Part shown: positions 4,573 to 62,209 of the stretch, one piece after another
Numbering within the stretch: position 1 is the first letter of the stretch
Layout: the number at the start of each line of letters is the position of its first letter
Origin: Elusimicrobia bacterium UBA5214
GTDB taxonomy: Bacteria > Elusimicrobiota > UBA5214
Direction: 5' to 3'
Length of the DNA stretch: 64,000 bases
Assembly (NCBI GenBank): GCA_002412545.1
Contig: DHVG01000013.1
Location: 129,315-193,314 of the forward strand
Notes under the pieces: model-generated
Told to the model about the DNA's origin: nothing
Databases searched by the model: none
What the model saw: the letters and a program-made list of their open reading frames with translations, nothing else
Translations under genes and position numbers: made by a program

Positions 4573-5975
4573 CTTCCAGAAAAATATTTTATGCCTACTC
4601 TAATAAAGTATAAAGTCCGTTTTAAAGGAAATATCATTTTTATATAGTAAAAGATTATTTTAGGTCTTAAATAGAATTGAATCATAATCATTTGTTGAAT
4701 CCTTTTCAATTTCTTTATGGATATTGAATCCGGAGAATATACGGGAATAGCAAGGGAACCTTTTGATAGATGAAGAGAGGAATATTCTATTTTTTTTTCA
4801 CTCTTAAGCTGTTCTGTTATTTCAGAACCGGGTAGGGGGCAAAACAAAGAAAAAGTTGCTCCGACGAGATCCAGTTCTAGTGCAAGTTGTTTGGTTTTCA
4901 TAATGTCCTCAATAGTTTCATCAGGATATCCTAAAATAAAAAAAGCATGAATAGGTAAACTGCATCGCCTTACCAACGATACTTTTTCTCTTATCAAATT
5001 TAGGTTTAATCCTTTCTTCATATTGTTAAGAATCTTTTGAGAGCCGGATTCAATACCAAGAACAATCGAGTGACATCCTGATTTCTTCATCCAAGGCAAT
5101 ATTTCTTCGGTTAATGAATTTAACCTAATTCCGTTGTGCATTGTCCACTTTATTTTTATATTATTCTCAATTAGAGATTTACAAAATTCTATTACAAATG
5201 AAGAGTTGTGTATAAAATTGTCATCGGTAATTAAAATTTCTTCTACTTTAAATTTGTAATATAATAATTTAATTTCTGAGATTACACTCTCAAGGGAACG
5301 CGAACGCATTTTTCTCCCTGATATTTTATAACCGACACAGAAAGTACATCTGTATGGACATCCTCTGGTAACCACTATGGGTGCTGATTTCATTGTTCTT
5401 GCCTGAAAAGTCGGCATAAATTTATGATAAAGTGACAAATCCAAAACTGTTCCCCAAGGAGGATGCCCAAAAGAGTCAACATTCTCATAAAATATTGGTT
5501 CATTGCATATAATTCCTTTTTCTGTCCTATAGATTAAACCTGGTATTTTGTTTGCCCATCCAGTGATATCTTTCTTTGATGTAAGGCAATCTATGAACTT
5601 CGGTACACTAATTTCTCCTTCCCCTTGGAAAGCATAATCAATCCATTTTAATTGGTTTAATACTTCATAGGGAGCTGATGAAGGATGGGGTCCTCCTGCA
5701 AGAGTTATGGTATTCGGCCTGTTTCTTTTTATAATTTCTGATATTTTATCTACTACGGAAACATCGGTAGAAAACATCGTAATTCCTAATACATCGGGAT
5801 CGACTTCGTTAATTCGCTTTATTACCGATTGCATATCCAATCTTTCCGCATGAGCATCAAGAATTACAACCTCATACCCTCTTTTCAATAAAGCAGTAGC
5901 AAGATAACCTAATCCTAAAGGAGGCATTACCCAAAAAGAACTTTTTTTTATGGGGACCAATAGAAAAATACGCAT
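4569..5975 (-). CDS. B12-binding domain radical SAM protein (paralog of 2482..3894)
   Basis: CxxxCxxC motif RGCPYRCTFC and N-terminal B12-binding-like domain; same architecture as the neighbouring gene. Confidence 0.8.
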   Translation of the reverse strand: MRIFLLVPIKKSSFWVMPPLGLGYLATALLKRGYEVVILDAHAERLDMQSVIKRINEVDPDVLGITMFSTDVSVVDKISEIIKRNRPNTITLAGGPHPSSAPYEVLNQLKWIDYAFQGEGEISVPKFIDCLTSKKDITGWANKIPGLIYRTEKGIICNEPIFYENVDSFGHPPWGTVLDLSLYHKFMPTFQARTMKSAPIVVTRGCPYRCTFCVGYKISGRKMRSRSLESVISEIKLLYYKFKVEEILITDDNFIHNSSFVIEFCKSLIENNIKIKWTMHNGIRLNSLTEEILPWMKKSGCHSIVLGIESGSQKILNNMKKGLNLNLIREKVSLVRRCSLPIHAFFILGYPDETIEDIMKTKQLALELDLVGATFSLFCPLPGSEITEQLKSEKKIEYSSLHLSKGSLAIPVYSPDSISIKKLKRIQQMIMIQFYLRPKIIFYYIKMIFPLKRTLYFIRVGIKYFSGR

Positions 5976-7181: not shown

Positions 7182-7890
7182 TTCTATTTTTCTCCTTAGA
7201 ACCGAGGTAGAGATAAATGTAAAATTAATCCCATATTTTAAGTATCTTGCTGACCGTTATTGTCCAAGTTAACAAAGTAACCCCAATATTTGGACAGCAA
7301 GGTGTTTTTGGGAACTAGCAATGAAGATTTAAACTTTAAGTTGTTGATTAATAAATCAAAAAATAACTAAACTCGCCAATATTATTTGTAAATCGGGTAC
7401 AGTAGAAATAGAGGAAACTATTAGTAAAAAGTCGTACCACCCTGTCTATTTTGGAATCTTTTGAGTAAATACGGTGCGGTTTGCTTAAAAATTTCTGTTT
7501 AGAATAAAATCCTCTGTTTACGGTGTTAGCGAATAGATGTCCTTTATTATAAAGTTATAAAATTATCCTTAATTATTATTTTAACAAAAATATTGGGAAA
7601 AAACAAGGTTTTAGGTAGGAATTTAATTCAGAAAACTTGTTAAGACCACTCAAAGATTAGGACATAAGTTAGAATTGGTAATTAAAAGTTAAGGTTCTAT
7701 TTGAAAGAAATAAGCAATGATATTCTTTTCGTTCACTTACAGGCAAAATTTTTGTTTATCCGAATATTTATAGGACAAATTGATAACTGTTATTTTTTTA
7801 TTCTTTTTTCAATTTAATCTCTTTTGAATTAAACTTTATACGTCATTTCAGTACAATCATCTTTTTTGTATCCACAAAACTACGGCTTCA

Positions 7891-14927: not shown

Positions 14928-16712
14928 TTATGTTTTGAATATAGAAAAAAATGCTTCCGGTGGAATATTCACTTCACCAAATTGTTGCATTTTCTTTTTA
15001 CCTTCCTTCTGTTTCTGCAATAGTTTTCTCTTCCTTGTAATATCCCCACCGTAACATTTCGCGGTAACATCTTTACGCAACGGTGGTATATTTTCACGAG
15101 CAATAATTTTGTTATTCACTCGTGCTTGTATTGGCACAGAGAAAAGATGCCGCGGGATAAGTTGAGAAAGTTTTTCTACTAATTTATTTCCTTTATTATA
15201 TGCATTATCCCGATGGATAAGAAAAGAAAAAGCATCAACTACTTGATGATTAACCAAAATTTCTAATTTCACAAGGTCACTTTTTCTAAACCCAATTATT
15301 TCGTAATCAAAAGAGGCATAACCTTGAGTAACTGATTTCAATTGGTCATAAAAATCATAAACAATTTCTGCAAGCGGTAATTCATAATAAAGAAGAACAC
15401 GTTCTGAAGAAATATAACGGAGTGTTTTAAATTTCGCTTGCCGATTATCAAGCATATTCATTACTGCACCAACATACTCTTTGGGAGTAACAATCATCGC
15501 TGAAACATAATTTTCTTCAATTTCTTTAATTTCATTTATTGGTGGTAATTGTATCGGATGATTAATTTCTATTACTTCACCATTTATTTTTCTTACCTGA
15601 TAAATAACATTGGGTGAAGTAACCAAAAGTTCTAATCTAAATTCACGTTTTAATCGTTCTTTAACTATTTCTAAATGCAAAACACCTAAAAAACCACAAC
15701 GAAATCCCGCACCAAGAATTTGTGAATTCTCCGGAATAAAGTAAAAAGAACTATCCGTAAGATGTAATTTTTCTAAAGCAAGTTGTAAATGTGGGTAATC
15801 CGCTGGATTTAGAGGATAAAATCCACTAAAAACATAGGGTTTAACTTCTCGGAATCCAGGATAAGTTTTTTTCCTTTCCGAATCTTTCTCTATCAGAAGG
15901 TCACCTATTTTTACTTGATGAATATCTTTAATTCCCGCAATACAATAACCCACTTCACCCGCAAAGAGACTTTTACTTTTTACCATTTTCAGTTGTAAAT
16001 ACCCCACTTCATTTACTTCATAAATTCCACCTGAGGAAATAAATTGTATCTTTTGTCCTTCGAAAATTTTTCCTTCTAAAATTTTTACATACAACACTAC
16101 ACCCCGGAATGGGTCATAAAAAGAATCAAAAACTAAAGCTTCTAAAGAAGTTTCTGTAGAACCATAAGGAGGTCGAATCTTTTTTACAATCGTTTCTAAA
16201 ATTTCTTCTGTTCCTAATCCTTGCTTTGCACTCGCCAAAAGTGGTTCTTCTTCAATTCCTAAGATTTCTTTTATTTGTTTTTTTGTTCCTTCAATATCTG
16301 TCTGCGGCAAGTCAATCTTGTTGACCACTGGAATGACTACCAAATTATTTTTTCTGGCTAACTCAAAATTGGCTAAGGTTTGCGCTTCTACACCTTGACT
16401 TGCATCAATTAATAAAAGACATCCTTCACAAGCGGCTAACGCACGAGAAACTTCATAAGTAAAATCTACATGTCCCGGGGTATCAATCAAGTTGAAAATA
16501 TAATTCTTTCCGTCAAGAGATACATAGTTCAAACGTACCGTTTTTGCCTTGATGGTAATACCTCGCTCCCGTTCTAATTCTAAACCATCAAGAATTTGTG
16601 GTTGATGACTTTTTTGCGAAATCAACCCGGTATATTCTAAAAAACGATCAGCAAGAGTCGATTTACCATGGTCAATATGAGCAATAATCGAAAAATTACG
16701 AATATTTTTCAT
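14928..16712 (-). CDS. lepA: elongation factor 4 (LepA)
   Basis: G-domain NFSIIAHIDHGKSTLADR, DTPGHVDF, NKID; 594 aa; classic lepA-lepB pairing. Confidence 0.95.
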   Translation of the reverse strand: MKNIRNFSIIAHIDHGKSTLADRFLEYTGLISQKSHQPQILDGLELERERGITIKAKTVRLNYVSLDGKNYIFNLIDTPGHVDFTYEVSRALAACEGCLLLIDASQGVEAQTLANFELARKNNLVVIPVVNKIDLPQTDIEGTKKQIKEILGIEEEPLLASAKQGLGTEEILETIVKKIRPPYGSTETSLEALVFDSFYDPFRGVVLYVKILEGKIFEGQKIQFISSGGIYEVNEVGYLQLKMVKSKSLFAGEVGYCIAGIKDIHQVKIGDLLIEKDSERKKTYPGFREVKPYVFSGFYPLNPADYPHLQLALEKLHLTDSSFYFIPENSQILGAGFRCGFLGVLHLEIVKERLKREFRLELLVTSPNVIYQVRKINGEVIEINHPIQLPPINEIKEIEENYVSAMIVTPKEYVGAVMNMLDNRQAKFKTLRYISSERVLLYYELPLAEIVYDFYDQLKSVTQGYASFDYEIIGFRKSDLVKLEILVNHQVVDAFSFLIHRDNAYNKGNKLVEKLSQLIPRHLFSVPIQARVNNKIIARENIPPLRKDVTAKCYGGDITRKRKLLQKQKEGKKKMQQFGEVNIPPEAFFSIFKT

Positions 16713-57817: not shown

Positions 57818-58396
57818 TTATTTCTTCTCTGCGTAATCAGCGCTTCTTTTCTGCGTAATCTGCGTTATACTATAGAGACAGCCACAATATTTTTGTGAAT
57901 ATAAACCTAATTCTTTGGCTTTCTTTTTCTCTGGATAATAACTATTCCGCAAATCCTGATAACAAAATTTTACTCCGTTTTTTTCTTCTAATTCTTTACC
58001 AATTCTTTTAATCTCTTCGTGCTTTTGCTGCGGACTGGAAAGAAGCGAACTGCTGAAATAAGTAAAACCATTTCCCCGGGCATATTTTGCCGTCTTCTCT
58101 AAACGCAAACGGTAACAAAAAAGATGTCGTTTTTCCGCATCATCGGCGAAATCTTTCACCGCCTTCAGCCATGCTTCCTGACTATATCCGTCATCATAAA
58201 TCACCGGGAATCCGATTTTTTCACTCAACTGCTTCACTGCTTCCCGCCGTTTCCGGTATTCTTCTTCGGGATGGACATTTGGATTAAACCAGAATACCGT
58301 AACCAATCCCGCCCTTTCAATGAAAGAACGGGATAATTCTTCATAAATTCCTAATCCGCAAATCGCACAACAAAAATGCAAGAGTAATTTTTCCAT
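57818..58396 (-). CDS. queH: epoxyqueuosine reductase QueH (DUF208)
   Basis: LLLHFCCAICG, FWFNPNVHPEEEY, YSQKYCGCLYS Cys motifs; 192 aa. Last ~40 nt hold a ~20-nt direct duplication (GATTACGCAGARAAGAA). Confidence 0.85.
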   Translation of the reverse strand: MEKLLLHFCCAICGLGIYEELSRSFIERAGLVTVFWFNPNVHPEEEYRKRREAVKQLSEKIGFPVIYDDGYSQEAWLKAVKDFADDAEKRHLFCYRLRLEKTAKYARGNGFTYFSSSLLSSPQQKHEEIKRIGKELEEKNGVKFCYQDLRNSYYPEKKKAKELGLYSQKYCGCLYSITQITQKRSADYAEKK

Positions 58397-58405
58397 CAGT
58401 ATATT

Positions 58406-58735
58406 TTACCGCTTTATTCTTGCCGCGTAGCAAAAAACATAAAAATATTTTCGCCAGAATTGGTCAGAGGAAGAGAATTGATTATCAGAATAAAAATAAT
58501 CAACTAATGTTTCGCGTAATCGTGTTAATTCTTTTAAGTGGGATTTGTTTTTTGGATTAGAAATTGTTAAATCCAAAAGTTCCAAGGCGCGTTCAACGGC
58601 TTTGCTGCTGTAATTATTATTCTTGTTTCTCCAGTTGATTGCCCGCTCAACCTCACTCCCGATGTTTGCCATCTGCTCAAAAAAAGTTAACTCAAACCAC
58701 CTGCCGGACGATAGTTGTTTATGCTGATAGTTCAT
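58406..58735 (-). CDS. hypothetical protein (downstream member of overlapping two-gene module)
   Basis: 109 aa, predicted helical; ATGA overlap with the upstream 113-aa ORF; no motif I can name. Confidence 0.5.
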   Translation of the reverse strand: MNYQHKQLSSGRWFELTFFEQMANIGSEVERAINWRNKNNNYSSKAVERALELLDLTISNPKNKSHLKELTRLRETLVDYFYSDNQFSSSDQFWRKYFYVFCYAARIKR

Positions 58736-59073
58736 TGTTTAATTAAGTTGTTTACGATTTCAATTATTTTTTCCCTGATTTCGGGATTATCAATTCCACG
58801 ACTACGGTTCCCTTGCGATGGTCGCAGATTTATCAATGCGTCAAATTCAATCCAACTTTCATCCTTTATTTCAGGATATAGATTAATCCCCCAGAGAGTT
58901 TGTTGATTTGAACCGTTTTCAATTAATAGAGCTTCCTCATCCGAGTGAAGTTCACCGCCAACAACCAAGATTCCTTTTTCCACATCAACCACTGCTTTAA
59001 CCAGGTCGCCAAACATTTCTTCTGCCATTTTCTTTAGCTCAGCAATAGAAATTTTATCCTTAATAATTTTCAT
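58732..59073 (-). CDS. hypothetical protein (upstream member of overlapping two-gene module)
   Basis: 113 aa, contains GILVVGGELHSDEEALLIENG; translationally coupled to 58406..58735; unknown family. Confidence 0.5.
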   Translation of the reverse strand: MKIIKDKISIAELKKMAEEMFGDLVKAVVDVEKGILVVGGELHSDEEALLIENGSNQQTLWGINLYPEIKDESWIEFDALINLRPSQGNRSRGIDNPEIREKIIEIVNNLIKQ

Positions 59074-59114
59074 AAATGTAATTTTTTTCTTTTGGCTTTC
59101 TTTTTGATTTTCTA

Positions 59115-59145
59115 AACTTCTTCTCCTACCCGCAATGAGCAGATA
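59115..59145. promoter_or_regulatory. conserved ~31-bp motif, copy 1, upstream of the two-gene module
   Basis: cttcttctcctacccgcaatgagcagataac; 28/31 identical to the copy at 60424..60454; minus-strand core GTTATCTGCTCATTGCGG lies ~45 nt upstream of the ATG at 59073. Confidence 0.6.
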
Positions 59146-59333
59146 ACATGTTCAGGGAAAAAATAAAACTGCCCCCTTTTTCGTCAAATGCTTAAGTCCC
59201 CATTCTTAGTTTTGCTTATAAATCCCTGCGGTTAGATTTATTTTAATAAATCTGCAGGGATGCAAAACTATGGGGGTCAAGGTTTTACACCTATTTCTAT
59301 TCCTATTTCACCCATTTATTTGAGCCCCGTAAA

Positions 59334-60404
59334 CTAAGTACCATTTGTCAATAATTTCTCCGGTAGTTTAATTCTTTCTAATCGTTGTTGGATAAGTTTT
59401 TTATCCGGCAATTTAGTTTGATAAACTGAAATTTTTATCGGTTTGTGTGTCTTACTTAAGGTCAAACGGACAATACTGTCTCTCTTAGAGCGACATAGAA
59501 TTAAACCGACCGATGGACTTTCCTCTGGTAATTTTATTTGTTCGTCAAGAGCAGCAAGATAAAACTGCATCTTACCCACATATTCCGTTCTAAATTCGCC
59601 TATTTTAAGTTCAACCGGGATAAGACATTTCAGTTCCCGATGAAAAAAGAGCAGGTCAATTCTAAATTCTTCACCATCTATCACCAGAGGATATTCTTCT
59701 CCAACAAAAGATAAGTTTTTACCAAATTCCAGAAAGAAATCTCTGAGATTGTCAAGAATTGCCTTGCGTAGTTCTTTTTCCGAGAAAGTTTTTGTTAAGT
59801 CTAAGAATTCTAAAACATATTCATCTTTTAAATGACGATGAATATCATCAAGCGGTATAGCAAGTTTCCCCTGAGTGGAACGAAGGGTCTCCTTTTCTAT
59901 CTCCATCAGTTTATCTGGTTTTTTAGAGAGAGCAAATCTTTCAAAATAAGCAGAATCAATCTGACGCTGTAATTCCCTCTTACTCCATCGTTCTTTTAAG
60001 CACATTTTGATATAAAACTCTTTTTCTTCAATGGTTCTTGTATGGTCTAAGATAATCACATTGTTTGTCCAGCTAATTTCTCCAGCCAGTGGCTGGAGAA
60101 TTGTTTTGTCTCTGTAAGTTAAATAAAATTTCTTCATATACCATAAATTCTGGACTGAAAATCCGCTCATTTCCGGATACTTCATCCTCAAATCCTGTGA
60201 TAGTTTCTCAACCACCCCATCACCCCATTCGCTCTTCTCTTGAAGACTTACAATACGCTCACCAATAAACCAGTAAAGGTCAATCAGCAGTTTATTTACA
60301 GTAGTGATTGCCTTATGTTTATTTTCTTCAACCTTTTTTATGATAGCTGAAAGTGATTCTCCGTAATCTTGAGTTTGTTTTTTTACAATATTAATTTTTC
60401 CCAT
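59334..60404 (-). CDS. YhcG-family (DUF1016) PD-(D/E)xK nuclease-domain protein
   Basis: N-terminal DUF1016 pattern (LIDLYWFIGERIV...WGDGVVEKLSQDL...GFSVQNLWYMKKFY...WSKRELQRQI) and C-terminal PD-(D/E)xK core (IDLLFFHRELKCLIPVELKIGEF); 356 aa. Confidence 0.8.
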   Translation of the reverse strand: MGKINIVKKQTQDYGESLSAIIKKVEENKHKAITTVNKLLIDLYWFIGERIVSLQEKSEWGDGVVEKLSQDLRMKYPEMSGFSVQNLWYMKKFYLTYRDKTILQPLAGEISWTNNVIILDHTRTIEEKEFYIKMCLKERWSKRELQRQIDSAYFERFALSKKPDKLMEIEKETLRSTQGKLAIPLDDIHRHLKDEYVLEFLDLTKTFSEKELRKAILDNLRDFFLEFGKNLSFVGEEYPLVIDGEEFRIDLLFFHRELKCLIPVELKIGEFRTEYVGKMQFYLAALDEQIKLPEESPSVGLILCRSKRDSIVRLTLSKTHKPIKISVYQTKLPDKKLIQQRLERIKLPEKLLTNGT

Positions 60405-60423
60405 AGGTACATTTTAAATTCTA

Positions 60424-60454
60424 TTTCTTCCCCTATCCGCAATGAGCAGATAAC
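60424..60454. promoter_or_regulatory. conserved ~31-bp motif, copy 2, immediately upstream of the YhcG-family gene
   Basis: tttcttcccctatccgcaatgagcagataac; ends ~20 nt from the YhcG ATG; TAGAAT-like hexamer follows the core on the minus strand. Confidence 0.6.
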
Positions 60455-60537
60455 GATCTCTGGATAAAAGAAGTTGCTGGAGGCAATTTGGGAAAATCTT
60501 TGATTTCCCTTTTGTCCGCTGTTAGGCGATGTGAAAA

Positions 60538-61110
60538 TTATAGTGTTGGCAAAATAACAAGAGCAACAAAAAGAAACAATGAAATTCCATAGATAAAAAG
60601 AACATATTTAGGCATAAGTAAAAATAATCCTCGTTCTTTTCTTTGTTCTGGCGAAAGTTTCAGGCTATATATACAGAAAAAAATAACAGGAATTATTCCA
60701 AATATCGCAATTGCAAAAATTATCTCCAAGACAAATAATATCCATATAGACCATAGCGGACGTTTAACTACCATTTCCTTTATGCCGAATAATGCTGAAT
60801 AGATTCCATAACCTATTGTGCACCAAAATAACCATTTACCAACAAAGTAATAATCTCTCTTTTTGATTGCTTGCTTTAACTTCTTCTCTCCAAATATATC
60901 TCTATCGTTTTTTTGCAATTCTTTTATTTGCATTTTATAGTTTTTAGCCTGCTGCAAAATCTCATTTGAAGGTTGACTTAACCTTCTTTCATCTAAAATT
61001 GATTTAGCAATTTCAATCGCTTCTTCAATATAATCTGAACTGTCAAAATATACCATAACTAAGAGTTCATTATCGCTAAGTTTTGAATACTGATCTTTTA
61101 GTTCATTCAT
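60538..61110 (-). CDS. hypothetical membrane protein (soluble N-terminal domain plus 3-4 TM helices)
   Basis: 190 aa; Lys/Glu-rich N-terminal ~90 aa, then hydrophobic helices; no known motif. Confidence 0.5.
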   Translation of the reverse strand: MNELKDQYSKLSDNELLVMVYFDSSDYIEEAIEIAKSILDERRLSQPSNEILQQAKNYKMQIKELQKNDRDIFGEKKLKQAIKKRDYYFVGKWLFWCTIGYGIYSALFGIKEMVVKRPLWSIWILFVLEIIFAIAIFGIIPVIFFCIYSLKLSPEQRKERGLFLLMPKYVLFIYGISLFLFVALVILPTL

Positions 61111-61183
61111 TATTTGACCTCTTTATATTTTTATGTAGCTTAACTTTTTTGTTTCCAAGCAGGTTTGGATACTTTTCCGGTTT

Positions 61184-62209
61184 TTAGAATAGTTCTTTGT
61201 TTTTTGGTGGAAGTAGCCCTAAATGACGATAGGCGTTTTCGGTAGCGATACGTCCACGGGCAGTGCGAGAAAGGAAACCGACTTGAATCAGATAAGGTTC
61301 ATAGACATCGGTGAGCGTATCCACTTCTTCGGAAACGGCGACTGCCAAAGTTTCTATCCCGACCGGACCACCGGAAAATTTTTCCATTATCGTCAATAAG
61401 ATTTTTCTATCCATTGAATCCAACCCGGCAGTATCTACTTCTAACGAACTTAACGAATCTTCGGCAATCTTACGGGTAATTATTCCTTGTCCTTTGACTT
61501 CGGCAAAATCACGGATTCTCCGTAAAAGACGGTTGGCTACCCGCGGGGTTGCTCGGGAACGGGAAGCAATAATTTCTGCACCGTCATCTTCAATTTTTAT
61601 CTCTAATAGTTTCGCTGAACGGAGAACAATCTTTTTCAATTCATCAAAGGTATAAAAGTTTAAATGTCCGATAATCCCGAATCTTTCTCTTAAGGGACTG
61701 GTGAGCAGACCGGCACGGGTAGTCGCTCCGACTATGGTAAAACGCGGTAAAGGGAGACGCATATTCCGTGCACTTGCTCCTTCACCAATAATGATGTCTA
61801 ATTTGAACTCTTCCATTGCCGGATATAATGCTTCTTCAACTAAACGATTCAGCCGATGAATTTCGTCAATAAAGAAGACATCACCGTCAGTTAAATTGGA
61901 AAGAATTGCCGCAAGGTCACCGACCCGTTCTAAAGCCGGTCCGGAGGTGGGACGAATATTTACATTTAATTCGTGGGCAATAATGTAGGCAAGAGTGGTT
62001 TTGCCTAATCCGGGAGGACTGTAAAATAAACAATGGTCTAAAGGTTCTTTTCTTTGTTTTGCCGCCTGGATAAAGATACGCAGGTTATCCTTTAATTTAT
62101 CCTGCCCGACAAATTCGTCTAATGTCTTCGGACGCAAGGTAATATCAATTTTTTCTTCTTCCGGAGTAATCTCGGTAGTAAGTATACCCCGCACCTTTTC
62201 ATTCTGCAT
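61184..62209 (-). CDS. ruvB: Holliday junction branch-migration ATPase RuvB
   Basis: AAA+ Walker [12 protein letters not shown], Walker B DEIHRL, sensor regions; 341 aa. Confidence 0.95.

Follow-up and report, generated by a model that had tools for sequence, protein, structure and literature searches.

What kind of locus separates ruvB from queH in the genome of the uncultivated Elusimicrobia bacterium UBA5214, and why is a short sequence repeated within it? We analyzed a 64,000-nt stretch (hereafter, the window; positions 129,315–193,314 of contig DHVG01000013.1, NCBI GenBank assembly GCA_002412545.1), in which four minus-strand open reading frames (ORFs) without a housekeeping assignment lie between the two conserved genes. 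A first-pass annotation, made from the sequence alone, had listed these four ORFs, an ATGA overlap between the genes of a 113-amino acid (aa) and a 109-aa protein, and a sequence of ~31 bp that occurs twice with 28/31 identical positions. All four ORFs and the 4-nt overlap are present, and the repeat can be read directly from the sequence. The same annotation took the repeat for a shared promoter or operator. The best-supported explanation differs: the islet is a site at which integron-type cassettes insert. Mobile-gene platforms of this kind are known; this one lies in the genome of an uncultivated member of the Elusimicrobia. We put the probability that it is a short integron-type gene-cassette array without its own integrase at about 0.7. 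No report of integrons in Elusimicrobia was found in a literature search.

On the strand of the 190-aa ORF and 10 nt past its stop codon, an element with attC anatomy begins. Its outer boxes are R″ GCCTAAC (60521–60527), of the RYYYAAC type, and R′ GTTATCT (60448–60454), which keeps the GTT of GTTRRRY and departs from RRR at positions 5–6. Between them lie an 11-bp L stem, a variable centre with CCCAAA, a hairpin and CTTC, and a 7-nt spacer; the total of 80 nt falls within the length range of such hairpins (~57–141 nt). Rfam holds no attC model. Two covariance models were used: R1, of attC-like sites linked to the repeat (hereafter, the motif), with the window site in its training set, and R2, rebuilt without the window site and its three close homologues. 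R1 matched 60448–60527(-) with 71 bits (E=2e-13), and R2 found the same site with 37.9 bits (E=8e-6), its next best match in the window scoring 12 bits. The weakest R1 match in the window (15215–15301, plus strand; 16.8 bits, E=0.29) had no R2 counterpart and is probably noise. In an alignment of 20 sites, 83.6% of the L-stem cells were paired, with compensatory changes at 10 of the 11 pairs; the covariation score was 0.439, compared with 0.150 in shuffles (0/500 reached the observed value) and 0.08–0.13 in controls with slid partners. The spacers are asymmetric (A or AG on the 5′ side, 5–7 nt on the 3′ side), and the bottom-strand fold is the more stable one in many of the related sites, not in all.

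The gene in front of this site has evidently travelled. The 190-aa protein consists of a soluble N-terminal part followed by 3–4 hydrophobic helices and has no match in Pfam, NCBIfam, PADLOC or PHROGs; only ~50 homologues exist, spread over phyla and mostly on short contigs. Two of them, in a Patescibacteria metagenome-assembled genome (MAG; locus L066, 71% identity) and in another MAG (L022, 62%), are bounded by attC sites, with an unrelated attC before the gene (...caaaacG|TTAGGC and ...ggaacG|TTATAC, respectively) and a near-identical attC of the window type after it. Homology among the three copies begins at G|TTAxxCxACATAAAA, after unrelated upstream sequences. The junctions read ...caaaacG|TTAGGCaACATAAAA in L066, ...ggaacG|TTATACgACATAAAA in L022 and ...aaacaaaaaaG|TTAAGCtACATAAAA in the window (61144|61143), where the cassette start, G|TTAAGC, lies 40 nt after ruvB. 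The same cassette, bounded at G|TT, is present in three different genomes. Judged from these sequence comparisons, the 190-aa gene and its 80-nt attC hairpin are shown to form a mobile integron cassette.

The features of the islet and its flanks, in the direction from ruvB to queH, are as follows.

61184–62209, minus strand: ruvB, a conserved flanking gene assigned with Pfam.
61138–61144, minus strand: ruvB-proximal junction GTTAAGC, with the crossover between G 61144 and T 61143; 5′ boundary of the 190-aa cassette.
60538–61110, minus strand: 190-aa ORF, a membrane protein of no known family; cassette cargo.
60448–60527, minus strand: attC site of 80 nt, found by the covariance models R1 and R2.
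60432–60454, minus strand: repeat copy A, GTTATCTGCTCATTGCGGATAGG, the G of R′ and then the cassette leader before yhcG.
60432–60454, minus strand: the same interval by make-up of the leader, namely the R′ remainder, a spacer and a putative outer-arm sequence.
59334–60404, minus strand: yhcG, 356 aa (YhcG/DUF1016, PD-(D/E)xK nuclease fold; PF17761 and PF06250).
59148–59300, minus strand: promoter-like element "U-left", upstream of copy B and kept in sister islands.
59125–59147, minus strand: repeat copy B, GTTATCTGCTCATTGCGGGTAGG, a cassette-type leader before the DUF5674 pair.
58732–59073, minus strand: 113-aa ORF, DUF5674, overlapping the 109-aa gene by 4 nt (ATGA).
58406–58735, minus strand: 109-aa ORF, predicted four-helix-bundle partner of DUF5674, without a Pfam model.
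57818–58396, minus strand: queH, a conserved flanking gene (PF02677, E=8e-54), starting 9 nt past the 109-aa gene.

In terms of boundaries, the order is the junction G|TTAAGC, the 190-aa cassette with its attC, G|TT with leader A, yhcG, an element of ~150 nt, G|TT with leader B, DUF5674 with its partner, 9 nt and queH. A composition scan found no break in base composition at the islet. The 18-mer GTTATCTGCTCATTGCGG, which forms the core of the repeat, has exactly two copies in the 64 kb, at 59130–59147 and 60437–60454 on the minus strand, with 0.01 chance matches expected and two copies in 0/100 shuffles; its longer form in the window is GTTATCTGCTCATTGCGG[G/A]TAGG, and the 31-mers differ at three positions. 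Copies A and B are direct repeats, 1307 bp apart with yhcG between them. The sequences upstream of them are unrelated, an attC hairpin in the case of A and the promoter-like element in the case of B.

An exact scan of metagenome contigs found the motif in nine stretches (two being copies in L005, a contig from a sister organism), always in sense orientation, 8–100 nt before a start codon, in front of unrelated genes and behind unrelated upstream flanks. A relaxed scan with one genome per species yielded 77 loci, ~55 of them clearly real, with the canonical form GTTATCTGCTCATTGCGGGCAGG followed by a Shine-Dalgarno sequence. By MAG label, ~24 belong to Nitrospirota and ~11 to Desulfobacterota/Deltaproteobacteria, and further copies were found in Nitrospinota, Dadabacteria, Patescibacteria, Planctomycetota, Firmicutes, Ignavibacteriota (Melioribacter), Gemmatimonadota and one Methanocellales archaeon MAG. 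Many copies lie 150–360 nt from contig ends, as expected because a repeat breaks assemblies. The motif sequence was in no paper found by our literature search.

At ~20 of these loci, as at window copy A, an element of 61–138 nt with integron attC anatomy stands directly before the motif. It consists of R″ (GCCTAAC, GGCTAAC or AGATAAC), 1–2 bases, a stem of 8–13 bp whose sequence varies between sites while its complementarity is kept, a centre of CCCAAA, a small hairpin and CTTC, the return strand, a spacer (mostly 4–6 nt, GGAAC or CAAAC; 7 nt in the window) and G|TTATCT. In the other motif-bearing loci, R1 detected 58 sites, on a single strand and at cassette spacing (six in L033, five in L087, four in L022, three each in L100 and L075, and two in the archaeal L028), and the R′ boxes follow the canonical GTTRRRY pattern (GTTAGGC, GTTATAT, GTTAGTT, GTTATCT and others). 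The archaeal case is a contig binned as such (JAUWXC010000076) with two attC matches (E ~3e-8) and one motif copy, which reflects either cross-domain integron cassettes, a known phenomenon, or a binning error.

These data bear directly on the proposed role of the repeat as a promoter or operator common to yhcG and the two-gene module, through which they would be co-regulated. Both copies do stand upstream of a gene in sense orientation, and a sigma-70-like match (TTGACG-16 nt-TATTTT) precedes copy B and is kept in sister islands. This promoter-like element lies outside the repeat, however, and is absent at copy A, where the attC hairpin takes its place; promoter-like matches in the region number 15, compared with 14.8 expected from shuffles, and the motif itself lacks palindromic symmetry as well as -10 and -35 hexamers. 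Moreover, its 22–23 nt recur at cassette boundaries in dozens of genomes of several phyla, near integron integrases, and the motif stays unchanged before unrelated genes in at least nine phylum-level groups, at the 3′ ends of attC sites, which argues against a site for a lineage-specific regulator. Co-regulation through the repeat, as put forward in the first-pass annotation, is therefore most unlikely.

The U-left element aligns with L005 1770–1843, L005 7150–7225 and positions ~1170–1281 of L012, a second sister contig, and has the promoter-like match (TTGAC-repeat / TATTTT) at its core; its bottom-strand fold is poor. As a candidate for a second attC it was rejected by both R1 and R2, and its CAGGGA/TCCCTG pairing was discarded as well, being made by a palindromic insert that is absent from the homologous elements. 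This insert, a 78-nt palindrome at ~59198–59275 (-) with the sequence ccccatagttttgc ... atccctgcag-atttattaaaataaat-ctaaccgcagggat ... gcaaaactaagaatgggg, interrupts U-left, is missing from the L005 and L012 homologues and has no second copy in the window; it could be an insertion resembling a miniature inverted-repeat transposable element (MITE) or the terminator of yhcG.

Several other identities of the motif were considered and set aside. A riboswitch or other known RNA was rejected, since no Rfam family matched over the motif, either in the window or in the 10 canonical loci scanned; a tRNA-derived att site, since the window contains no tRNA; and a solitary CRISPR-like repeat, since scans of the window and of the collection found no arrays and each locus has 1–2 copies. 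The mini-ORF MLSAHCG* has its start codon in some copies only, and in L009 a stop codon stands directly before it. Sigma-54, sigma-28 and extracytoplasmic function (ECF) promoters were dismissed by eye, as boxes and spacing do not fit. A repetitive extragenic palindromic (REP)/RAYT element was dismissed because there are too few copies, because they are strictly oriented with respect to genes and because GTAG lies on the hairpin's wrong side. A phage origin was rejected too, as no viral contig matched the motif and only YhcG has a PHROG.

What, then, is the motif? It begins exactly at the G|TT crossover of the window attC. In L022, the same attC is followed by GTTATAT and gaaattgctg..., not by the motif, indicating that the motif belongs to what follows the crossover and not to the attC proper. 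In 26 cassettes with both ends visible, complementarity was found between the 18 nt after R′ and the 24 nt just 5′ of R″ in the same cassette. Examples are TTGCGGGCAG and CTGCCCGCAA in L039, TGTGCCGCCAA and TTGGCGGCACA in L075 (11 nt), TGTGCCAAAC and GTTTGGCACA in L100 (10 nt), and CGCTTCGC and GCGAAGCG in L087; perfect complements of 10–11 nt occur with three different sequences. The mean duplex energy was -9.97 kcal/mol for own pairs and -7.44 kcal/mol for mismatched pairs (permutation p=0.00015 for the 26 cassettes; p=0.001 for the 17 with non-canonical leaders). From this we infer that the motif comprises the R′ remainder TTATCT, a spacer of 4–5 nt and the 3′ arm (TTGCGGGCAGG) of a helix outside the attC stem, of which TTGCGGGCAGG / CTGCCCGCAA would be the commonest version. 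No description of such an outer helix, in which 16 nt after R′ pair with sequence 5′ of R″, was found in a limited literature search. That the tag is complementary to the flank of the cassette's own attC suggests that attC recognition involves an additional structural element.

The motif is also closely associated with translation signals. A Shine-Dalgarno-like tetramer lies within 25 nt of 55 of the 63 motif copies examined, at a median of 2 nt after the motif, and 30 of the 63 have both tetramer and start codon, compared with 10% at random positions. With a ribosome-binding site almost directly after the motif, an additional role in translation is possible. One could go further and regard the motif as an RNA hairpin (CUGCUC-AUUGC-GGGCAG) in the 5′ untranslated region that sets up or insulates the ribosome-binding site, its link to attC being secondary. 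Apart from the tetramer and start codon counts, this is favored by the invariably sense orientation, by G-U pairs of the hairpin that exist on the sense strand only, by two variable positions that keep pairing and by the many copies that lack a recognisable attC upstream. Against it, no Rfam family matches, variation within the motif is too small to show covariation of the local hairpin, and the pairing of the 3′ half with sequence 5′ of the own R″, shared by alternative leaders, is a property of a recombination site at the DNA level. We consider a primary RNA role improbable, although the two roles are not mutually exclusive.

If the cassette-borne leader, the outer helix and the ribosome-binding context are taken together, the motif may be a previously undescribed extended attC architecture, located 3′ of the crossover, common to unrelated cassettes of Nitrospirota, Desulfobacterota, Nitrospinota, Patescibacteria, Elusimicrobia, Firmicutes, further groups and the Methanocellales archaeon, and served by both IntI and XerA-like recombinases. 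We advance this tentatively, as a minority possibility. If real, the extended attC would provide a sequence tag for cassettes, including the attC-less yhcG and DUF5674 pair, and a handle on cassette formation and expression.

The link between the motif and integrases is seen in other genomes. In L041, a divergent ORF 240 nt from the motif matches TIGR02249, "integron integrase", with 375 bits, and in L074 an ORF on the same strand as the motif does so with 373 bits (cut-off, 265); an integrase gene adjoins the cassettes in these two loci, whereas none does in the window. An ORF of L081 passes NF040815, "site-specific tyrosine recombinase/integron integrase". When the proteins of L041, L074 and L081 were used as queries, recombinase genes or remnants were found 0.1–1.8 kb upstream on the same strand in L026, L057, L067, L074, L075, L081, L087, L096 and L100. 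Most of the recombinases beside the motif pass NF040815 (XerA/integron integrase) and remain below the TIGR02249 cut-off (L081, L075, L100, L026 and L087), and several copies are pseudogenised. Two types of recombinase seem to serve the same class of sites, those of L041 and L074 being classical IntI. A second long hairpin, not attC-like, was observed before the motif in L057 (~4735–4840), L067, L096, L098, L062, L048, L032, L095 and L009 (...CCCAAA..., ATATCCGAAC...CGGATAT, GAACAA|GTTATCT). In L057, L067 and L096 it directly follows recombinase gene fragments, and it may represent the attI of integrons in which integrase and cassettes point the same way.

Comparison of sister contigs indicated that the place itself is variable. 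L005, whose 109-aa protein is 91% identical to that of the window, keeps the order queH-DUF2905-spoIID-queA-tgt. Before queH, it carries a TIR_2 protein, two type II DNA methyltransferases, 185-aa and 390-aa proteins without an assigned family, an ORF6N protein (PADLOC PDC-S05), an HsdS-like/DUF5674 fusion and an intact 109-aa gene. Its two motif copies lie upstream of a methyltransferase gene and of the ORF6N gene, and R1 and R2 both found attC sites at 1197–1276 and 5813–5892, which were in no training set (E=5e-7 and 4e-5 with R1; 2e-4 and 0.009 with R2). L012 has the motif, a 98-aa gene and a DUF4258 gene before queH; a Y1_Tnp-like gene near its motif was judged coincidental. In L014, a third contig, ruvA-ruvB is followed by 276-aa and 467-aa genes, and the ruvB flank ...ataaacaaG|TTAGTG leads into the different (276-aa) cassette, a short attC-like hairpin and the motif; this hairpin was spotted by eye, and both R1 and R2 miss it. 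The accessory nature of the islet, as first annotated, is borne out by these differences before queH in L005 and L012 and after ruvB in L014, and the same four genes with housekeeping roles were not found at this position in the relatives.

Two strains with different cassettes at the same G|TT beside ruvB present the pattern classically left when an integrase inserts cassettes at an attachment site. As far as sequence can tell, the ruvB-side G|TT may resemble an attI or be an attG as the term is used in bioRxiv 10.1101/2022.09.11.507474. In uncultivated Elusimicrobia, this fixed point beside ruvB seems to act as a hotspot of variation throughout the lineage.

Two further observations concern the conserved neighbours. 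A 22-bp tandem duplication, TTCTTCTCTGCGTAATCAGCGC (57822–57864; 2 copies, 90% identity), at the 3′ end of queH lengthens the QueH C-terminus (...RSADYAEKK). The tgt gene is a single 392-aa ORF in L001 and two ORFs (200 and 185 aa) in L002 (GCA_002400355.1, 14404–15575); L001 and L002 are two assemblies of the source organism, and the split is probably an assembly frameshift.

A variable place of this kind could also be an ordinary hotspot for defence or accessory genes, in which homologous recombination between short linkers exchanges genes with no integrase involved and the attC-like hairpin is the fossil of a single gene. The promoter-stem-loop cassettes of T4-type phages are a comparison for such a linker-shuffled hotspot. 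Defence-type cargo, the lack of a recombinase in the 64 kb and the recurrence of the promoter-like element and leader as a unit in four places agree with this view. So does a mosaic junction in L005 (7876–8004), a 42-aa ORF whose HsdS-like N-terminal part (ELPAGWRWVKLGEV) runs into the C-terminal end of DUF5674 (EIVNNLIKQ; 35 nt at the 3′ end of the gene). By its sequence, this fusion reads as a recombination scar, the DUF5674 gene being ancestral there and overwritten by part of an ORF6N / type I restriction-modification locus. Exchange by linkers alone would nevertheless leave unexplained that the exchange points in independent strains are G|TT junctions, that the sister island holds further attC sites and that the motif is tied to integrase genes elsewhere. 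We regard it as highly unlikely.

The cassette-array interpretation itself has evidence to answer. No tyrosine recombinase ORF was detected in the 64 kb (phmmer with IntI1/XerD; tblastn with three IntI-like proteins). The window has one recognisable attC, while the published definition of a CALIN (a cluster of attC sites with no accompanying integron-integrase) asks for two or more attC sites on a single strand within 4 kb and for the absence of intI from the vicinity (PMC4889954), so that the window is not a CALIN; the two attC sites of L005 are 4.5 kb apart. Neither yhcG nor the DUF5674 pair has an attC at its 3′ end that R1 or R2 recognises, neither has homologues in the integron loci examined, and elsewhere the DUF5674 pair is found among housekeeping genes without attC. 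Approximately two thirds of the motif copies have no R1-detected attC before them. The attC class departs from the textbook in its spacers (1 nt vs 5–7 nt) and in its R′ (GTTATCT, not GTTRRRY). Finally, in L033, L031 and L087 the outer 5′ arm matches the leader of the next cassette and not the cassette's own, so that the precise crossover and the ownership of the helix are provisional. What the window contains is a single attC and two further cassette boundaries with leaders, with no integrase in view.

On the reading as a cassette array, the islet would have been built by site-specific recombination at the G|TT point ~40 nt downstream of ruvB, with an integrase encoded elsewhere or since lost. 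The motif would be a part of the recombination site that travels at the cassette 5′ end and carries a ribosome-binding site within a few bases; in the excised circle, TTGCGGGCAGG would pair with CTGCCCGCAA just 5′ of the own R″ and form the extra outer helix. Because the yhcG unit and the DUF5674 pair unit each begin with the leader, we read them as older cassettes or cassette-derived units, in which attC may have been lost or replaced (the promoter-like element follows yhcG, and the pair abuts queH). Transcription reading through from ruvB, together with the promoter-like element before copy B, would account for expression of the genes. The corresponding empty site would be the ruvB flank ...aaacaaaaaaG joined directly to TTATCTGCTCATTGCGG. 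An islet with a shared motif thereby becomes a recognisable mechanism, integrase-mediated cassette insertion beside ruvB, and the motif marks the boundaries of cassettes in a widespread class of environmental integrons precisely enough to be searched for. Two leads appear to be of interest beyond this locus, namely the cross-phylum leader with its outer attC helix and the widespread DUF5674 pair.

The functions of the cargo are predictions from sequence and structure models: a candidate-defence PD-(D/E)xK nuclease, a membrane protein, and an enzyme-like DUF5674 protein with a helical partner. The YhcG assignment of the first-pass annotation was confirmed by Pfam, with full-length matches to DUF1016_N and YhcG_C (E=1e-44 and 8e-52; 152 and 176 bits against cut-offs of ~33), and the sequence RIDLLFF...PVELK fits the D...ExK motif; the protein also matches phrog_22762 and PADLOC PDC-S02 (E=2e-116). 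As for the remark that no defence-system signature is recognisable, PDC-S02 is a PADLOC candidate defence family, and type II methyltransferases, TIR and ORF6N/PDC-S05 occupy the same spot in relatives. In E. coli B challenged with T4, T5 or T7, the one PDC-S02 representative tested was not protective, while a PDC-S05 representative was (bioRxiv 10.1101/2024.09.26.614923). Integron cassettes are known to carry defence genes (bioRxiv 10.1101/2024.07.02.601719).

The 113-aa protein is a member of DUF5674 (PF18924; E=5e-38, 129.8 bits against a cut-off of 27, profile positions 2–109 of 109), whereas the 109-aa protein has no match in Pfam, NCBIfam, PADLOC or PHROGs. The partner always adjoins DUF5674, usually with the same 4-nt overlap, and the pair occurs in Omnitrophota, Patescibacteria, "Unc6", Elusimicrobia and other contigs, among unrelated and often housekeeping neighbours without attC. 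DUF5674 has at least 8000 homologues and the partner at least 2500, with 65–80% identity across phyla. The DUF5674 model is an alpha/beta fold (predicted local distance difference test score, pLDDT, 92) with an invariant acidic/His cluster (E41/H43/D45-E47), and a structure search returned no solved or viral relative; the partner is modelled as a four-helix bundle (pLDDT 90.6) with generic structural matches only. No paper mentioning DUF5674 was found in the literature search. The pair had been likened to a toxin-antitoxin (TA) module. The 4-nt overlap and the autonomy of the module agree with this comparison; the pair matches no known toxin, antitoxin or defence family (the 113-aa protein matching DUF5674 only), and no DNA-binding fold is seen in either model. 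DUF5674 as a small enzyme held or regulated by its helical partner, possibly in a TA-like manner, is a conjecture that we consider doubtful. The pair constitutes a widespread autonomous module without a known function or fold relative. In the Patescibacteria contig L019, a partial copy of the partner (7348–7434; C-terminal 29 residues, 69% identity) was observed ~1 kb downstream of an intact DUF5674 pair, next to a zeta-toxin gene.

How does the islet compare with known systems? With type II TA modules, the DUF5674 pair shares two small co-oriented genes, a 4-nt overlap, autonomy and occurrence in many unrelated contexts, but it has no family match and no DNA-binding fold in either model, its conservation is unusually high (65–80% across phyla) and its neighbours are often housekeeping genes. 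The yhcG product resembles YhcG/DUF1016 proteins by its full-length match to both domains and to the PDC-S02 models; DUF1016 genes occur inside restriction-modification loci or beside them, where they are enriched (PMC9881135), whereas the window yhcG stands alone, with no adjacent restriction-modification genes. Like RfaH ops/JUMPStart and BoxA, the motif is a short, conserved element on the sense strand, in the 5′ leader of genes gained by horizontal transfer. Part of it, TGCTCATTGCGGGTAGG, loosely and only partially resembles the boxA (TGCTCTTTA) and ops (GGCGGTAG) consensus. An ops/BoxA antitermination site was rejected, because neither the window nor any locus examined yielded a NusG paralogue and because the attC-boundary explanation accounts for the position of the motif exactly.

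The closest counterpart is the integron cassette with its attC. Integrase-less attC elements, both CALIN and single attC sites, have been described (Cury et al. 2016, PMC4889954), as has the insertion of cassettes into genomic attG sites of a non-classical type (Loot et al., bioRxiv 10.1101/2022.09.11.507474). The window differs from a typical array in having one attC, no intI in 64 kb and two of three units without attC, and its site class in the asymmetric unpaired spacers (1 nt vs 5–7 nt) and the R′ GTTATCT. It agrees with integron cassettes in the 80-nt imperfect hairpin 10 nt past a stop codon, with RYYYAAC ... GTT boxes and a covarying stem; in the G|TT boundaries and the presence of the same cassette in different genomes; in the same-strand arrays of related loci with adjoining TIGR02249 integrases; and in a cargo of small uncharacterised, membrane and defence-like genes. 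To this anatomy, the sites described here add a further 16 conserved nucleotides after R′ and a putative outer helix formed with the sequence 5′ of R″.

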